Positions 31,846 through 36,936 of a stretch of DNA of 64,000 nucleotides are shown piece by piece. The notes below the pieces were generated by a model, which saw nothing but the letters and a program-made list of their open reading frames with translations, made no database searches and was not told where the DNA came from. Each line of letters starts with the position of its first letter. Position 1 is the stretch's first letter. Source of the stretch: a virus; IMG/VR virus record IMGVR_UViG_3300042991_000780, positions 1-64,000 of that record; one strand, 5' to 3'. A program made the translations under genes and the position numbers.

Positions 31846-32946
31846 CTAAAGAGTAAACCTATCTTGTTTACGAGCCTTTTTACGAAGTTCGTTTACTGTT
31901 CTGAGAGCATCTGGATCAAATCTTTCCCTTTTAACGACACTCACCATATGGTTGAATTCGTTTTCGGTGATAACCTGACCAATATATCCTTCGGTCTTGA
32001 GTACATAACTCTTTGGTGCTTTACTTGAAGCAGAAGGGTTACCTTCTGTATCAAGAGTTGCTTCAAAGGTCAACTCAAGAAGTTCCTGAATCTTTTCCTG
32101 AACACTTGCGGTCATACCCTGTTTTGTTTTCTTCAATGACCTTTCAAGCAAATCAACAATATTTTCCTGATGCTTTACTTTCAACTCATTATAAGTTTCG
32201 GTAAAATTCTGCATTGTTGATCTATTTTTCAACTCACTGATAATTGCAAGTGAACCATAGCAGTCACGGATCATCAAGTCCCATACCTGTTCTGCGTAAG
32301 TGAATGAAGGGAATTTGTCTATTGCAACAATTTCACCATCAACAAGTACGATGATACCGATAAGATTGCTTGGACGTTCAAAGTGAGCAATAAACTGTTC
32401 AAGTTTCTTGTCGTACTTTTCAAAGTAAACGTTCAAGTAGTTACCAGCGTTTGACTGAGTATCCTGACCCAATTTCTGAATAGCAGGATAAATCCTATGA
32501 TATGAACTTGGCTGTCCAACAGTGTCAAACACCATTTCACGCATGGTTACTGGAAGCATACGGAACTCCTGAGTACCACGAAAATGTCCGGTCTGTCCAC
32601 CCTGAACACAACCAGCATCGTGATAAGTAACGTTACCGTACTTTTCAACGTAACCTGCTTTGGTCATACCATGATTCTGAGCACTCTGCTTGGTCATAAC
32701 AGCCATCTGGGTAGGAAGAATAACTTCCTTATCAGCCTTATTAGCAAAACTAATCTGACCGTAAGAACTGTTACCAGCCTGAACCGAAGTCAATGGATTA
32801 GCAAAACGTTCATCCAAAGAATATTCCTTGTCAGTTGTCAAACATACGATCTGCATGTTCAAAATTGACTGAACGATAATGTTACCGTTTTTGTCTTTGA
32901 CTGGACGGCAACCTTTAAGCAATTCTGTAAATTCTCTTTTATTCAT
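31846..32946 (-). CDS. ARPP-1/DUF6569-like protein
   Basis: Motifs FANKADKEVILP...AQNH...GCVQGGQ and LIGIIVLVDGEIVAIDKFPS resemble the N..v.l..G..Q.R...CVE.G.W and vG.iv.i.G.v...D.F patterns of this family. Confidence 0.65.
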   Translation of the reverse strand: MNKREFTELLKGCRPVKDKNGNIIVQSILNMQIVCLTTDKEYSLDERFANPLTSVQAGNSSYGQISFANKADKEVILPTQMAVMTKQSAQNHGMTKAGYVEKYGNVTYHDAGCVQGGQTGHFRGTQEFRMLPVTMREMVFDTVGQPSSYHRIYPAIQKLGQDTQSNAGNYLNVYFEKYDKKLEQFIAHFERPSNLIGIIVLVDGEIVAIDKFPSFTYAEQVWDLMIRDCYGSLAIISELKNRSTMQNFTETYNELKVKHQENIVDLLERSLKKTKQGMTASVQEKIQELLELTFEATLDTEGNPSASSKAPKSYVLKTEGYIGQVITENEFNHMVSVVKRERFDPDALRTVNELRKKARKQDRFTL

Positions 32947-32957
32947 GATATGAAATA

Positions 32958-34592
32958 TTAAGCATTAATACTAATTTTTTTGTTCCTTTTAACAGGTGCT
33001 GCTTCAAGAGCAAGAACCTGATTTTCAAGCCACCTTTTGGTGTCAATTTCAAGCAACCTTGCGTTGATTTGTGGCTGCAAAGCAACGGGGTTATTTATTG
33101 CCATTGTGACAACTCCTGCACCAAGTTTCCTTACATTAGCACCCATTTCAGCACTCACGATTGGTGAAATTTGAAACATAGGTATATTTCTTCCGGTTTC
33201 TGCCTTCCAAATGTTGATAACTTCATTGGTAAGACCATCGTATGCGTTTTCGTATCCATCGGTTAAGATGAAGATTGCATCATATGGTTTTGAAGCATTT
33301 TCTGCTTTCAAAAGTCCAATAAATGAACTTGCCAAGTCAGTAACCTCACCATCAGTGTATTCAATACTGCAACTATTGGTTGCAGATTTGCTCAATACCC
33401 TTGCGGTAAAGTCAGCAATTGCCTTTGGAGTGTTCTTTGATTCAGCCTGATGACCACTCATTGAATTACTCATATCGACAATAATACCGATATTTGGGTA
33501 GAAGAATCCTACGATTTTCTTCTTGTCTGCAAGTTTGTCAATAGCACCCATTATTTCAGGAGTGAATTTTGTTTCATAACCTGTCTTGTAAAGTGCCAAG
33601 AAATCAGTTGCTTTTTCAAGATCAACATGTTTTTCAACACCCAACTTTGCAGTTGATTTTGTCTGACGAACCTGCTGGTTTACAGAAGTAACCTCAACAT
33701 TTTTCCTAATCAAAGCCTTTGTTGCTTCTCTCTGGATTTTTGTTGACCACATTGAATGATACTGAGGATGCTTTACGCTTGAAATCAAGCCAAGCAATAC
33801 TTCTTCAGGTACTTTCTTTGATGCAGTAATATCAGTCTTTGCTTTCTGATATTCACTCAAAAGAGGGAATACATTAGCATTAAACGTAACACCAGCATCT
33901 TTCTTGAAGATGAAAAGCATAAGTTTGAATGCTTTCATTGGATCACCATTGTAATACCTTAATATGTATTCATTCAAAATCTTCATTTCCTTTTCAGTTC
34001 CAACAACGAATTCACCAACGTTAGCAGCCTTGCCAGTAATTGAAAGCAACACAGATGTCATTTTCTTTCCATATGCGTGCCTCAAAGTATCGGCAATCTT
34101 GTTACGATATTTCATTGCATAGAATTCAAGGTTTTCCTGACCCCAGATGAAGCCAAGCATGATTTTCCTTGACCTTTCGTTGTTGATCTTTGCATTTTTC
34201 AATGAAACAAACAAACGAAGAACATATGGTAGACCACTTTCGCCAAGGTTGTTCAATGCTGAAAGCACTGCCTTATCGCTTAATCCGTTATCATACCAGT
34301 CAATTGGATTAACAATATTGCATGCTCCACCCTTTAAGGTACTTTTAAATTCATTAAACAATACCTCTGATACGAACTGACCAGTCGCACCCTTCTGAGT
34401 TGCAACTATCAACGGGAGTTCCTTTGAAAGTTTATACAAACTCTTAACCTGAGTCTGAATAGCCTTCACCTGTTCGTCACCCTTGTGGTAATAGGTAGCA
34501 CTACCTTTTGCACCACTTGCAATGGTAAGACCATCGATAAGTGACTGCTTTACCTTACTGAGCATGTTGTTTGCTAATACCAACTTTTCCAT
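32958..34592 (-). CDS. Divergent Ro60/Rsr-like (TROVE + vWA) RNA-binding protein
   Basis: 544 aa, close to Ro60 size. N-terminal GSATYY resembles Ro60 GGTYY; the middle is helical and Lys-rich; the C-terminal vWA has MIDAS IVDMSNSM, VTDLAS and DAIFILTDGYE (Ro60: VDVSxSM, GTDCSL, DVFIVFTDNE). The vWA call is firm and the TROVE call is likely. Confidence 0.65.
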   Translation of the reverse strand: MEKLVLANNMLSKVKQSLIDGLTIASGAKGSATYYHKGDEQVKAIQTQVKSLYKLSKELPLIVATQKGATGQFVSEVLFNEFKSTLKGGACNIVNPIDWYDNGLSDKAVLSALNNLGESGLPYVLRLFVSLKNAKINNERSRKIMLGFIWGQENLEFYAMKYRNKIADTLRHAYGKKMTSVLLSITGKAANVGEFVVGTEKEMKILNEYILRYYNGDPMKAFKLMLFIFKKDAGVTFNANVFPLLSEYQKAKTDITASKKVPEEVLLGLISSVKHPQYHSMWSTKIQREATKALIRKNVEVTSVNQQVRQTKSTAKLGVEKHVDLEKATDFLALYKTGYETKFTPEIMGAIDKLADKKKIVGFFYPNIGIIVDMSNSMSGHQAESKNTPKAIADFTARVLSKSATNSCSIEYTDGEVTDLASSFIGLLKAENASKPYDAIFILTDGYENAYDGLTNEVINIWKAETGRNIPMFQISPIVSAEMGANVRKLGAGVVTMAINNPVALQPQINARLLEIDTKRWLENQVLALEAAPVKRNKKISINA

Positions 34593-34632
34593 AATGACAA
34601 TTTTTAATTATTAAAACTTATTTTTCATTGTG

Positions 34633-34663
34633 CAATGTTACACATTATTTTTTAATATCCAAA
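34633..34663 (-). promoter_or_regulatory. Bacteroidota-type sigma70 promoter of the Ro60-like gene
   Basis: TTTG (34663-34660), 19 nt spacer, TAACATTG (34640-34633; one mismatch to TAnnTTTG). Confidence 0.45.
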
Positions 34664-34671
34664 AAAATTAT

Positions 34672-34722
34672 AAAAAAAATCGGGTAAGTCGATAGATTTC
34701 TCAATCAAGTCCCCACCCGATT
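34672..34722 (-). terminator. Terminator-like hairpin ending the ncRNA operon
   Basis: AATCGGGT/ACCCGATT stem enclosing GATT-GAGA-AATC, followed by a long T-run on the minus strand. Confidence 0.6.
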
Positions 34723-34753
34723 CGTTTTTTGGAATAACTCTTCTTCAAATTAA

Positions 34754-34847
34754 AGAAGAAGTGCGGTTGTATTGCCTGTAGTTTGTCTCCCTTCTCACAC
34801 GGGGGAGATTACATTTTTCAATTACTGTAAACACAGCCAGTTCTTCC
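34754..34847 (-). ncRNA. Y-RNA-like structured RNA, copy R1 (GC-rich hairpin insert)
   Basis: GGAAGAA-CT-GGCTGTGTTT-ACAGTAA...ACAGG-CAATACAACC-GCAC-TTCTTCT; insert hairpin TCTCCC/GGGAGA. Confidence 0.7.
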
Positions 34848-34927
34848 ATAAAAATTTATATTTTTTGAAAAAAATGCCACACACCTGTGACCAAAAAACC
34901 ATTTTTAACCGTCAAATGTTAGGATTC

Positions 34928-34997
34928 CAAGTGGGGATTTGGATTAATATTACTTGATTTATCAAATTTGTCTGCAATCCGCATATCGCTCCACTTG
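34928..34997 (-). ncRNA. Additional structured RNA candidate
   Basis: Nested stems CAAGTGG/CCACTTG, GGATT/AATCC and TTGAT/ATCAA, lying between R1 and R2. Confidence 0.4.
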
Positions 34998-35006
34998 TAT
35001 AATTTC

Positions 35007-35144
35007 GGGAATAATTTAAAAGTATTTGTTGTTTTTAATCAAAGTTTAAGAGACTTCTGACTTAACCGCTTGTCTATTTTTCAATTTTGGCTGAAAAAGA
35101 TGGATTCGAACCACCGTATTACTGTAAACACTTTTCGTTTTCCC
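35007..35144 (-). ncRNA. Y-RNA-like RNA R2 containing a circularly permuted tRNA-Lys(CUU)
   Basis: GGGAAAA-CG-AAAAGTGTTT-ACAGTAA, then T-arm, acceptor hairpin with GCCA in its loop, D-arm and anticodon arm, then ACAAC-AAATACTTTT...TTCCC. Confidence 0.8.
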
Positions 35145-35173
35145 TCAATATTTTAAAGAACTTCAATAAGTTT

Positions 35174-35253
35174 AGAAGAAATTCGTTGGTCTTGTTGTCG
35201 TTATTAGTTTGATTTCAAGTCAAATTGTTACTGTAAAAACCACCAGTTCTTCT
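35174..35253 (-). ncRNA. Y-RNA-like RNA R3 with an isolated anticodon-like stem-loop (UGA, Ser)
   Basis: AGAAGAA-CT-GGTGGTTTTT-ACAGTAA...TTTGA-CTTGAAA-TCAAA...ACAAC-AAGACCAAC-GAAT-TTCTTCT. Confidence 0.7.
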
Positions 35254-35303
35254 TTATATTTTAAATTTGTAGCAGGTTATTGTTTCAAATTTGAAATTTC
35301 AAA

Positions 35304-35312
35304 GTATTTATA
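35304..35312 (+). promoter_or_regulatory. GTATTTATA putative phage late-promoter motif (plus-strand copy)
   Basis: 13 nt upstream of the ATG of the only credible plus-strand gene; the same motif precedes more than 10 minus-strand genes. Confidence 0.6.
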
Positions 35313-35325
35313 ATAAATAGTACTT

Positions 35326-36003
35326 ATGAAACCAAATTATACCGAATCTGAATTTGACACAGCAACATCTACAAGTTTATTATCTTGTTTTTGTTATAAT
35401 TGTAACACCCTTTTTAATGTAATGAAGAAAAATATTGTACAGGAATTAAAGCATAAAAGAGGAAGAATAAAATTTTGTTCAAAGAAGTGTCATGATATTT
35501 ATCAATCAAATCAAATCTCCGTTATTTGTAATAATTGCGGTAAAACATTTACTAAAATAGCATCTGAAATTAAAACAAATAATTTTTGTTCAAATTCATG
35601 CGCTGCAATATATAATAACACACATAAAACAAAAGGCAATCGTAGGTCTAAACTTGAAACATATCTTGAAACACAACTCGCTGCACAATTTCCAAATTTA
35701 GAAATATTATTCAACGATAAAAAAACAATTAATTCCGAACTGGATATTTACATACCCAGACTTCACCTTGCTTTTGAACTTAATGGTATTTTTCATTACG
35801 AACCTATCTATGGTCAAAATAAATTGAGTCAAATTCAAAATAATGATAATCGTAAATTTCAAGCCTGTTTAGAACAAGAAATTGAATTGTGTATTATTGA
35901 TGTTTCACATCAAAAATATTTTAAAGAAAACACTTCAAAAAAGTATTTAGACATTCTCATTACAATTATAAACAATAAGTCAATGAACATGTTAAACATT
36001 TAG
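35326..36003 (+). CDS. Zn-finger + Vsr/PD-(D/E)XK-like putative homing endonuclease
   Basis: CxxC...FCSxxC zinc motifs twice; ELDIYIP...AFELNGIFHY nuclease motif; antisense to the ncRNA operon. Confidence 0.75.
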   Translation: MKPNYTESEFDTATSTSLLSCFCYNCNTLFNVMKKNIVQELKHKRGRIKFCSKKCHDIYQSNQISVICNNCGKTFTKIASEIKTNNFCSNSCAAIYNNTHKTKGNRRSKLETYLETQLAAQFPNLEILFNDKKTINSELDIYIPRLHLAFELNGIFHYEPIYGQNKLSQIQNNDNRKFQACLEQEIELCIIDVSHQKYFKENTSKKYLDILITIINNKSMNMLNI

Positions 36004-36059
36004 TCAATCTATCGATTGTGCAGTAATTACCACGTGCAGGTAGTTTAACTTTAATTACT

Positions 36060-36133
36060 TAGCGGGAGATGGATTCGAACCACCGACCTTAACGTTATGA
36101 GCGTCACGAGCTAACCACTGCTACTACCCCGCA
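36060..36133 (-). tRNA. tRNA-Met(CAU)
   Basis: TGCGGGG-TA-GTAGC-AGTGGTTA-GCTC-G-TGACG-CTCATAA-CGTTA-AGGTC-GGTGG-TTCGAAT-CCATC-TCCCGCT-A; no encoded CCA. Confidence 0.85.
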
Positions 36134-36573
36134 ATATGTTTTTCCAATAAATCCCATGCTTCTCTATATTCATGAGATTTTGGCTTTCTCTGTCTGGATA
36201 CTTTTTCATGTAATGTTATTGAACCCGCAAATGAATTAAAAATATTAACAGGTACAACATAAAACACTTTTAGTTCTGAAATGAAAATTATTGCAAAATT
36301 AAAATCATTATTGGAATATTTTTCTCTTTTCATCACACGTCTATTTGTTTTGGTTCTTCTCACATCAATCAAATAAACTCCTTCTTCTTTTGATAACCAC
36401 GCTGACTTAACTTGTATCTTAATAAATTTATTATTAATAACAATGACCAAATCATATGGTAATCTATCACCTACCGGAATTAAAACATCCCATCCCAATT
36501 GAAGTGCTTTTAATTGTACTTCAATCTCCGCAATATCACCTTTCATTTTAGTATCCATAATCTCAAAGAACAT
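36124..36573 (-). CDS. PD-(D/E)XK homing endonuclease, I-Ssp6803I-like; real start probably 36558
   Basis: KGDIAE...GWDVLIPVGDRLPYDLVI...IKIQVKS motif; the last codons and stop overlap the tRNA-Met 5' end; the first ATG lies in a boxA-like site. Confidence 0.8.
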   Translation of the reverse strand: MFFEIMDTKMKGDIAEIEVQLKALQLGWDVLIPVGDRLPYDLVIVINNKFIKIQVKSAWLSKEEGVYLIDVRRTKTNRRVMKREKYSNNDFNFAIIFISELKVFYVVPVNIFNSFAGSITLHEKVSRQRKPKSHEYREAWDLLEKHIAG

Positions 36574-36586
36574 TTAATAAGATAAA

Positions 36587-36718
36587 AAAGGAAAATTTGT
36601 TTGTTATTTCTGTTATAAACAATGATGGAATTGAACCACCAACATTCTGCTTGACGTGCAAACACTCTAACCAGTTGAGTTAATTGTAATTTACTGTAAT
36701 AACAACACCGTTTCCTTT
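36587..36718 (-). ncRNA. Y-RNA-like RNA R4 containing a near-complete tRNA-Asp(GUC)-like body
   Basis: AAGGAAA-CG-GTGTTGTTATT-ACAGTAA, cloverleaf at 36687-36619, then ACAGA-AATAACAAAC-AAAT-TTTCCTT. Confidence 0.75.
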
Positions 36719-36723
36719 TTTTG

Positions 36724-36810
36724 TGGGGAGAACAGGAATCGAACCTGTAATCAATTGTGTTTAAAACAATTTGCTTTACCTTATTTACTGTAAACACTTC
36801 AAGTTCTCCC
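36724..36810 (-). ncRNA. Y-RNA-like/tRNA hybrid RNA R5
   Basis: GGGAGAA-CT-TGAAGTGTTT-ACAGTAA...TAAACAC...ACAGG-TTCGATT-CCTGT-TCTCCCC-A; the terminal helix directly follows a canonical T-arm. Confidence 0.7.
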
Positions 36811-36873
36811 TTACGGGAGCAATGAGATAGTATTTTCGTTATTTTGATTTGCTATCTCCCCATTTAAAAGTTT

Positions 36874-36904: not shown

Positions 36905-36936
36905 CAAATATAAAACACCTTTTTTAATTGTGCAAG
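36905..36936 (-). promoter_or_regulatory. Bacteroidota-type promoter of the ncRNA operon
   Basis: CTTG (36936-36933), 20 nt spacer, TATATTTG (36912-36905), an exact TAnnTTTG match. Confidence 0.7.

Follow-up and report, generated by a model that had tools for sequence, protein, structure and literature searches.

Background

What kind of RNA is encoded by five related repeats clustered on one strand of a viral genome, and with which protein would such RNAs work? The repeats in question, here named R1 to R5, lie at positions 34,754 to 36,810 of IMG/VR virus record IMGVR_UViG_3300042991_000780, of which we analysed the first 64,000 nucleotides (nt; hereafter, the window); the whole record spans 95 kb and is 31% complete by CheckV estimate. 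The five repeats are genes for structured RNAs of a huge uncultured phage. They are located directly upstream of a gene for a predicted, hidden relative of the RNA-binding ring protein Ro60, and in view of this location they most probably represent a variant of the Y RNAs that has not been described before. We assign a probability of roughly 70% to the reading that they constitute Y-RNA-like partners of the downstream Ro60-like/ARPP-1 module in a clade of jumbo phages. By analogy with known Y RNAs we infer that the stem they share, termed here the handle, would be the binding site of the Ro60-like ring, because the linkage between RNA and protein holds in both directions across distant lineages.

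Particles of Ro60 and Y RNA occur in animals, in some bacteria and in a few phages. Next to their Ro60 genes, more than 250 bacteria and phages encode Y RNAs, which carry the motif GNCGAAN0-1G alongside a tRNA-like domain (Chen et al. 2014, PMC4201824). In the Mycobacterium smegmatis Y RNA YrlA, RNase P cuts the acceptor-like hairpin and CCA is gained (PMC4201824). The Ro60 protein of Thermus phage phiLo binds two upstream Y-like RNAs (Yrl1 and Yrl2; PDB 9KOP, 9L5Y), which were found by their CGAA motif (PMC12135203). The gp130 protein of phage Bas63 (Felix O1-like) is Ro60-like by structure, adjoins phage tRNA genes and counters the ppl defence system, and the authors of the PhageMaP preprint describing it guess that some of the Bas63 'tRNAs' are Y RNAs (PMC11482910). 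TROVE proteins have also been recorded in a few jumbo phages by a survey of such genomes.

Results

Five RNAs with a shared handle

The initial annotation of this region, made from the letters of the sequence, proposed a five-copy RNA family with a fixed-spacing core and stems that change in sequence while largely keeping their pairing. The five minus-strand 5′ strings that it quoted are letter-for-letter correct, and the core TTACAGTAA does start at plus-strand positions 34822, 35119, 35228, 36691 and 36785. This core occurs 7 times in the window against 1.5 expected, a count reached by none of 100 shuffles, and five of the copies fall within the 2-kb stretch of the array. On the 3′ side, the complements of helix 2 and helix 1 described for R1 to R4 are borne out by the folds of each RNA, in which the ends pair, and R5 had rightly been left out of that description, as it has no 3′ strand for helix 2. 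Two details require amendment. The spacing is fixed in four of the five copies but not in R4, where helix 2 exceeds the usual length by one or two nt, and the 3′ element given as ACA[AG]N is present but consists more plausibly of an AC, paired with the GU of ACAGUAA, and a loop strand of 2-3 nt after it.

The handle of R1 to R4 is formed by pairing of the RNA's own 5′ and 3′ ends. Helix 1, of 7 base pairs (bp), is separated from helix 2, of about 10 bp, by an asymmetric internal loop of C-K against 4 nt, and helix 2 is followed by a junction in which UUU-ACA-GUA(A) stands opposite (U)AC-A-R-N. Read from the aligned sequences, the conserved core is predicted to be a small internal loop, ACA opposite A-R-N, bounded by helix 2 on one side and by a short GUA/UAC helix on the other, with the remainder of the RNA (the cargo) lying beyond it. 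Within ACAGUAA, the GUA is paired to a conserved UAC of the 3′ side in 95-100% of sequences of two of the classes defined below (B and C), and both strands are invariant; the GUA/UAC helix therefore fits the data but is not proven by covariation.

Covariation, put forward with the original proposal as its check, was assessed for the scaffold on a cross-class alignment of 38 sequences from classes A to D with their arms in register. Cells of the scaffold are paired in 89% of cases (92% in the 7 bp of helix 1 and 87% in the 10 bp of helix 2), as opposed to 49-55% when the partner strand is slid by 1-3 columns, and changes on both sides are seen in 11 of the 17 scaffold pairs. The covariation score of 0.52 exceeds the 0.10-0.18 obtained with slid partners and was reached by none of 500 shuffles. 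Together with covariation of the cargoes among orthologues and a conserved order and strand in 73 related viral loci, both presented below, this bears out the proposal of a structured and functional family of RNAs, with stems that vary in sequence but keep their pairing.

An RNAduplex screen at -11 kcal/mol proved too loose to separate true from chance elements, and a covariance model built from orthologues of R1 to R4 was used instead. This model scores R3 at 76 bits, R2 at 63.5, R1 at 60.4 and R4 at 55.9, and R5, left out of the training, is recovered at 25.8 bits (E 0.007). Beyond these five copies it finds nothing above noise in the window or in the whole 95-kb record.

A Ro60-like protein encoded downstream of the array

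The array ends 160 nt upstream of an open reading frame (ORF) of 544 amino acids (32958..34592, minus strand). This ORF has no match in Pfam (at E 0.01 or better), in PHROGs or in a sequence search of the PDB, and because sequence annotation gave nothing its identity came from fold search alone. An AlphaFold2 (AF2) model based on an alignment of 76 sequences (A2) has a predicted local distance difference test (pLDDT) value of 91.3 and a predicted template modelling (pTM) score of 0.90, and the top 12 matches returned by Foldseek against the PDB are all Ro60 proteins (from Xenopus, human, Deinococcus radiodurans Rsr and Thermus phage phiLo). VIA-align superposes the model on Ro60 structures with Z scores of 12.5-18.6 over about 400 residues, covering helical ring and vWA domain from residue 12 to 532, versus 9.9 or less for chains that match in the vWA domain only. 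The modelled architecture is a helical-repeat ring followed by a vWA domain bearing the MIDAS (metal-ion-dependent adhesion site) motif, of which the residues DxSxS (373-377) and D445 are invariant in alignment A2. The model thus indicates that the 544-residue protein is a divergent, hidden homologue of Ro60/Rsr. Hundreds of homologues exist, many of them on contigs of 300-365 kb, with remote relatives down to about 25% identity.

Linkage of the RNAs and the protein

With the Ro60-like protein as query we collected 73 related viral loci, and in these all of the covariance-model matches (257/257) lie upstream of the Ro60-like gene and on its strand, usually at three to five per locus. The match coordinates show the class order E-D-tRNA-Met-B-A-C to be kept across related loci. 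Linkage was also examined in the reverse direction, by scanning the viral collection with two 15-base patterns from the handle: where a pattern matched near a Ro60-like gene, that gene was always 216-2005 nt downstream on the same strand, and the 42 pattern loci that had room for the gene but lacked it contained no model match and are therefore chance matches.

The association extends to distant lineages. In the 462-kb genome of huge phage LR756500 a handle RNA scoring 38.3 bits lies upstream of a Ro60-like gene of 27.5% identity, and in contigs assigned to Chitinophagales, Bacteroidales, Kapaibacterium and Saprospiraceae handles scoring 34-25 bits are found just upstream, and on the same strand, of genes with about 29% identity. 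In such lineages (Ro60-like genes 27-30% identical) the helix sequences differ yet are complementary, and the core reads GUUAUUACAG(U/C)A; an ACAGCAA variant of the handle is also present in distant loci. Some of the distant cargoes (in loci L301 and L334) are arranged as T arm, closed acceptor and D arm, the order seen in YrlA. Two distant protein homologues, P0124 and P0144, yielded no loci when used as queries against the viral collection. We also observed that a scaffold of 362,763 bases (JBAZIW010000001.1), deposited as part of a 'Candidatus Paceibacterota' metagenome-assembled genome, carries the phage Ro60-like gene at 76% identity and, in addition, four handle RNAs; this scaffold probably represents the genome of a jumbo phage that was binned as a bacterium.

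Cargoes of the individual RNAs

R2 (class A; 35005..35146, minus strand; alignment A1, 33 orthologues) has as its cargo a cloverleaf in circular permutation, with the opening at the variable loop, where the handle joins. Its T arm (35099-35115) is followed by the 3′ strand of the acceptor (35092-35098), an encoded G-CCA (35088-35091), a linker AAAU (35084-35087), the 5′ strand of the acceptor (35077-35083), the D arm (35059-35074) and an anticodon arm (35041-35057) with the loop CUCUUAA. The class as a whole has the order T arm, acceptor 3′ strand, NCCA, linker of 1-19 nt, acceptor 5′ strand, U-A, D arm and anticodon arm. All four stems (T, acceptor, D and anticodon) are paired at 99-100% in this alignment, with compensatory changes in 17 of 20 pairs, a result that none of 500 shuffles reaches; NCCA is encoded in 25 of the 33 orthologues, and 11 different triplets occupy the anticodon position. 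The permutation is the reason why tRNA finders miss R2.

R4 (class D; 36586..36719, minus strand; alignment A6, 44 orthologues) contains a tRNA-like cloverleaf in normal order (36616-36689), with the loop ACGUCAA at the anticodon position; the class lacks CCA. ARAGORN does not call R4 in the window but calls most of its orthologues as tRNAs, with at least 12 different anticodons (Asp, Ser, Lys, Leu, Arg, Glu, Ala, Ile, Cys, UCA and UUA among them) on the same body with its short variable loop. Variation is focused on positions 34-36, which have an entropy of 1.5-1.8 bits and present 16 triplets among the 44 orthologues, within a loop frame that is kept (U33 in 35/44, A37 and A38 each in 41/44). 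UCA accounts for 10 of these 44 triplets and UUA for 4. Class D members of loci L017, L025, L045, L062, L073, L077 and others were in some cases labelled tRNA-SeC(UCA) or tRNA-Stop(UUA) by ARAGORN. The long standard-code ORFs of the window show no sign of stop-codon recoding.

The two remaining full members have no tRNA body. The cargo of R3 (class B; 35172..35255, minus strand; alignment A3, 28 orthologues) is limited to one hairpin, UUUGA-CUUGAAA-UCAAA, in which 5 bp enclose 7 nt that resemble an anticodon loop, and pairing across the class is 99.5% in helix 1 of the handle, 84% in helix 2 and 95% in GUA/UAC. In R1 (class C; 34752..34849, minus strand; alignment A4, 22 orthologues) the cargo is made up of UUG/CAA and GUA/UAC mini-helices, which are 100% paired but invariant, and of a 6-bp hairpin with a conserved, UGAGA-containing loop, which is 99% paired with compensatory changes in 4 of its 6 pairs.

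R5 (class E; 36724..36812, minus strand; alignment A8, 12 orthologues) resembles a tRNA and combines an acceptor stem with the T arm ACAGG-UUCGAUU-CCUGU and the anticodon-like hairpin AAUUGU-UUUAAAC-ACAAUU, the latter two of which covary. Its Rfam tRNA score of 26.5 bits falls below the gathering threshold of 29, and ARAGORN makes no call on it. Two further helices were considered for this class and rejected: GUGUUUA/UAAACAC, found in the minimum free energy fold of R5, has a 3′ partner that is not conserved among orthologues, and a UUUAC/GUAAA hairpin is broken in 3 of 12 sequences by an uncompensated A-to-U change.

Cargoes of this kind raise the question of whether the RNAs are simply unusual tRNA precursors, in which the flanks act as processing stems, R4 matures into a normal tRNA, R2 yields a split or re-joined permuted tRNA with its encoded CCA, and the Ro60-like protein serves only as a chaperone or in quality control. 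At 44.5 bits the R4 cargo does exceed the Rfam gathering threshold for tRNA, and its orthologues are called by ARAGORN; R2 combines a perfect 7-bp acceptor stem with canonical T and D arms, a CU-CUU-AA loop and, in most of its class, NCCA. There is, moreover, a true tRNA-Met inside the array, and distant homologues of the protein adjoin large arrays of ordinary tRNA genes. Against this stands the presence of the same handle on R1 and R3, neither of which has a tRNA body, and a conservation of the handle stronger than a leader-trailer stem would require. The putative tRNAs also depart from decoding tRNAs in several respects. A single class D body bears many anticodons across phages, always with a short variable loop, a feature not found in bacterial tRNA-Ser and tRNA-Leu. 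R4 of the window has C33, only five clean acceptor pairs, no CCA and no ARAGORN call, and in class A U33 is kept in only 21 of 33 sequences and 8 of the 33 loops are without CCA. We therefore consider this explanation unlikely, and retain the view of the RNAs as Y-RNA-like partners of the Ro60-like module; several genes called as 'tRNAs' in such phages, apparent suppressors among them, probably do not encode decoding tRNAs.

ARPP-1 as partner of the Ro60-like gene

An ORF with an ARPP-1 domain (31846..32946, minus strand; Pfam PF20208, E 4.8e-14) starts 11 nt after the stop codon of the Ro60-like gene. The gene order Ro60-like, then ARPP-1, recurs in 58 of 58 close loci and in 55 of 58 distant loci with room for it, and ARPP-1 is an obligate operon partner. 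Among the loci that contain the pair are those of Planctomycetota, Myxococcota, Bacteroidota, archaeal-binned contigs and phage LR756500. In Planctomycetota and Myxococcota chromosomes, distant Ro60-like/ARPP-1 pairs adjoin dense same-strand arrays of 16-40 ordinary-looking tRNA genes, as exemplified within the set of bacterial and archaeal-binned contigs L294-L354 by L313 (Minicystis rosea, CP016211), L298 and L306. The Rfam model for YrlA has no match in 14 distant loci. Residues invariant in the ARPP-1 alignment include C113, Q115, Q118 and H92. ARPP has been described as a predicted enzyme with conserved Cys and Gln residues, thought to act on ribose or nucleotide moieties, and its reported neighbours do not include Ro60 (PMC9503650).

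Complex prediction suggests that the Ro60-like protein and ARPP-1 may act as one unit. The pair scores 0.59, versus 0.31 for the best control, which amounts to weak support: the mark applied is reached by 58 of 80 solved complexes and by 2 of 110 mismatched pairs, and scores of 0.60 or under comprise only 7 of the 80 solved complexes and both of the passing mismatches. At least 85% of contacts agree among runs, and partner pLDDT is at least 82.

These observations also bear on a second alternative, namely that the RNA family is real but that its handle is read by something else, for example by ARPP-1 or by a nuclease for which the helix serves as a signal for cutting, Ro60 binding the RNAs, if at all, as substrates through its central cavity. 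The co-occurrence of ARPP-1 is as strict as that of Ro60 (58/58 and 55/58 loci), the predicted chemistry of ARPP on ribose or nucleotide moieties (PMC9503650) would suit such a role, the known CGAA Ro-binding motif is absent from the RNAs, and the predicted complex lends the idea the same weak support that it lends to a single unit. Set against this, all characterised end-paired RNAs encoded beside Ro60 genes bind Ro60 through that stem (PMC4201824, PMC12135203), and no RNA-binding activity is known for ARPP. We regard reading of the handle by a protein other than Ro60 as decidedly improbable, and binding by the Ro60-like ring is preferred.

Setting of the array in the window

All large ORFs of the window are on the minus strand, and genes for a DnaB-like helicase and a 5′-3′ exonuclease lie upstream of the array. 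Along the minus strand the order is R5, R4, a PD-(D/E)XK homing-endonuclease ORF, tRNA-Met(CAU), an HNH-like ORF on the opposite strand, R3, R2, a handle-free element with a terminator, R1, a terminator-like hairpin, the 544-residue ORF and the ARPP-1 ORF. The tRNA-Met(CAU) gene (36059..36134, minus strand; called by ARAGORN, 33.2 bits with Rfam) is free-standing and without a handle, between class D and class B; it occupies the same array position in 28 of 29 related loci scanned, some of which have two copies. It is flanked by the PD-(D/E)XK homing-endonuclease gene (36124-36573, minus strand; PF11645, E 4e-42) and by the HNH-like, zinc-finger endonuclease gene (35326-36003, plus strand). 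Since these two genes are found in only 2 and 3 of the 73 related loci, respectively, they represent recent mobile insertions and stand outside the system.

The handle-free element (34865..35004, minus strand), located between R2 and R1, was delineated by an alignment of 18 loci (A7), a terminator scan and its fold. It consists of a variable 5′ hairpin, the invariant segments CCUAACAUUUGA and GGUUAAGAAUGGUUUUU, a terminator hairpin (34876-34891) that covaries among the 18 loci, and a U-run; it has no match in Rfam. The element probably marks the end of a first transcription unit. A second terminator-like hairpin, UCGGGUGGG...ACUUACCCGA followed by a U-run (34672..34720, minus strand; fold of -17.6 kcal/mol, z -2.0), occupies the interval between R1 and the Ro60-like gene.

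Directly upstream of R5 a stable hairpin, GGGAGAUAG...CUAUCUC, is seen on the minus strand at 36811-36863, and the 90-nt leader upstream of R5 folds at -16.8 kcal/mol (z -2.7), a value equalled by none of 200 shuffles. On the minus strand TTGCACAAT is found at 36927-36935 and 34627-34635, upstream of the array and upstream of the Ro60-like gene, and nowhere else; the sequence could serve as a promoter box, its count in the window being 3 against 2.65 expected and hence not above chance. A Bacteroidetes-type promoter pattern likewise has counts in the window no higher than chance.

Searches for known features in the region returned little else. A DNA search of 50,697 phage records with the region had tRNA-Met as its sole match, an Rfam scan of the whole window at gathering thresholds gave two tRNA matches and nothing else, a permissive Rfam scan of the array region gave no convincing match apart from tRNA, and Pfam analysis of nine more neighbouring ORFs was uninformative except for one weak RecA-like match.

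The proposition that the repeats are non-functional (remnants of tRNA duplication or traces of homing endonucleases) or merely a structured leader of the Ro60 mRNA, already disfavoured, has in its favour two homing-endonuclease genes within the array and the location of the array directly upstream of the Ro60-like gene, but it is very hard to credit given endonuclease genes in 2-3 of 73 loci and RNAs in essentially all, a conserved class order, many helices with compensatory changes and terminator-like hairpins between the array and the Ro60-like gene.

Discussion

Relationship to known systems

The general logic of the array is that of the YrlA/Rsr systems: its RNAs are small, number several per locus and are encoded next to a Ro60 gene, their ends pair into a stem, and their interior mimics a tRNA. 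The closest correspondence is found in R2 and in the L301 and L334 cargoes, which, as in YrlA, present a T arm, a closed acceptor hairpin and then a D arm. R2 therefore contains, inside an end-formed stem, a tRNA-like module of YrlA type with covariation in all arms, plus an extra, complete anticodon arm. Several features depart from YrlA. The conserved element of the array RNAs is UUU-ACA-GUA(A) instead of GNCGAAN0-1G; R2 keeps a full anticodon arm, with the stem attached at the variable loop rather than at the position of the anticodon stem; and one handle is here wired to cargo in several ways. The CCA of R2 is encoded, unlike that of M. smegmatis YrlA, which is added. On the protein side, and unlike YrlA systems, the Ro60 relative is too diverged for the Pfam TROVE profile and always occurs with ARPP-1. 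Rfam YrlA (RF02553) has no match in the window at its gathering threshold of 69 bits. The Rfam score and the CGAA motif thus argue against membership, but the common logic and the arm order of R2 are those of YrlA, and we therefore class the RNAs as a Y-RNA-like variant and not as members of the YrlA family.

Among phage systems, phiLo resembles the present locus in that the phage encodes its own Ro60 and, directly upstream, Y-like RNAs, and the predicted fold of the window protein matches that of phiLo Ro60 with a Foldseek probability of 1.00 and a Z score of 15.1, at an identity of about 12-14%. The accessible text on phiLo describes two RNAs, identified by CGAA and a stem-bulge-stem shape, and within it neither a series of tRNA-mimic cargoes nor an ARPP partner is reported (PMC12135203). 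Like Bas63 gp130, the window protein is a phage Ro60-like protein recognisable by structure only, next to genes of tRNA type; PhageMaP, unlike the present work, defined no RNA family. A tblastn search of 50,697 phage records with the window Ro60-like protein found LR756500 only, and hence no sequence-level relation to Bas63 gp130.

The permutation of R2 also invites comparison with circularly permuted tRNA genes. In the red alga Cyanidioschyzon merolae such genes mature via a circular intermediate that is formed at a bulge-helix-bulge by a splicing endonuclease of eukaryotic/archaeal type. As in those genes, the 3′ half of the R2 cloverleaf (T arm and acceptor 3′ strand) precedes the 5′ half. 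The break in R2, unlike theirs, is in the variable loop and is bridged by the conserved 17-bp handle, which is common to non-tRNA cargoes, and neither a bulge-helix-bulge nor a splicing enzyme is evident at R2, no formal search for either having been made. Our literature search found no paper describing the handle, the cargo series or the link between Ro60 and ARPP.

Proposed mechanism

Each full member of the array (R1 to R4) would consist of the common handle as its protein-binding part and of a tRNA-derived cargo, be it whole, permuted, anticodon-arm-like or another hairpin. By analogy with M. smegmatis YrlA, R2 would be cut by RNase P in the acceptor loop, exposing a CCA end. We tentatively suggest that the resulting particles might present mimics of tRNAs or anticodon loops to tRNA-directed factors of the host or of phages, as decoys, tethers or a repair platform where host and phage contend over tRNA. 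Such a role would account for rapid change at the anticodon position with the loop frame kept.

A broader and more doubtful conjecture is that Ro60-like/ARPP-1 proteins and handle RNAs make up a distinct, widespread class of ribonucleoprotein, distributed over huge phages and the tRNA-array loci of Planctomycetota, Myxococcota and Bacteroidota. In such particles tRNA bodies or anticodon loops would be mounted on the ring, and the variable triplets would form the working surface, whether as decoys, sensors or repair templates in conflicts over tRNA (for instance, with anticodon nucleases); ARPP-1 would contribute an as yet unseen chemistry on RNA ends or ribose.

Points that weigh against a Y-RNA-like identity

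A number of observations temper the proposed identity. The GNCGAAN0-1G (CGAA) Ro60-binding motif of bacterial and phage Y RNAs is not conserved in the array RNAs: a motif of CGAA type occurs only in R2 (ACGAAAAG), where class A orthologues have CUAA, CGUA or CUGA, and the other classes have CU-GG or CU-UG. The best permissive match to YrlA, at 22.9 bits (E 0.089), is mis-registered across parts of R5 and R4. Of the handle, R5 has just the 5′ half (CU-UGAA-GUGUUUACAGUAA), at the place of the D arm, with no 3′ strand of helix 2. The Pfam TROVE profile detects neither the 544-residue protein nor 10 of its remote relatives, one of which has a weak VWA_CoxE match only. With regard to covariation of the scaffold, measures based on pair counts and pair types are not above shuffles (reached by 156/500 and 314/500, respectively), and the handle is nearly constant within each orthologous class, so that the scaffold signal derives mostly from comparison of paralogous classes. 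ARPP-1 is linked to the RNAs as tightly as Ro60 is, and co-occurrence therefore cannot tell which of the two proteins binds the handle. Lastly, the fast change at the anticodon position could reflect relaxed constraint on three positions and not selection.

Conclusions

The locus provides a natural series in which one handle is joined to a whole tRNA, to a permuted tRNA with CCA or to an anticodon arm alone. Further features bearing on the role of the tRNA mimic are the anticodon-focused variation, a branch of Ro60 invisible to profiles and a fixed, enzyme-like ARPP-1, the link of which to Ro60 is new relative to the literature searched. For genome annotation, pipelines could take the UCA and UUA cargoes of class D for suppressor tRNAs and infer stop-codon recoding from them. 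Binding by the Ro60-like protein would be probed by point mutations in the handle segment UUUACAGUA, and the series of handles and cargoes makes the purpose of the tRNA mimic in Y RNAs directly testable. More broadly, the locus suggests that Ro60-type proteins are connected with tRNA arrays or with defences that target tRNA.

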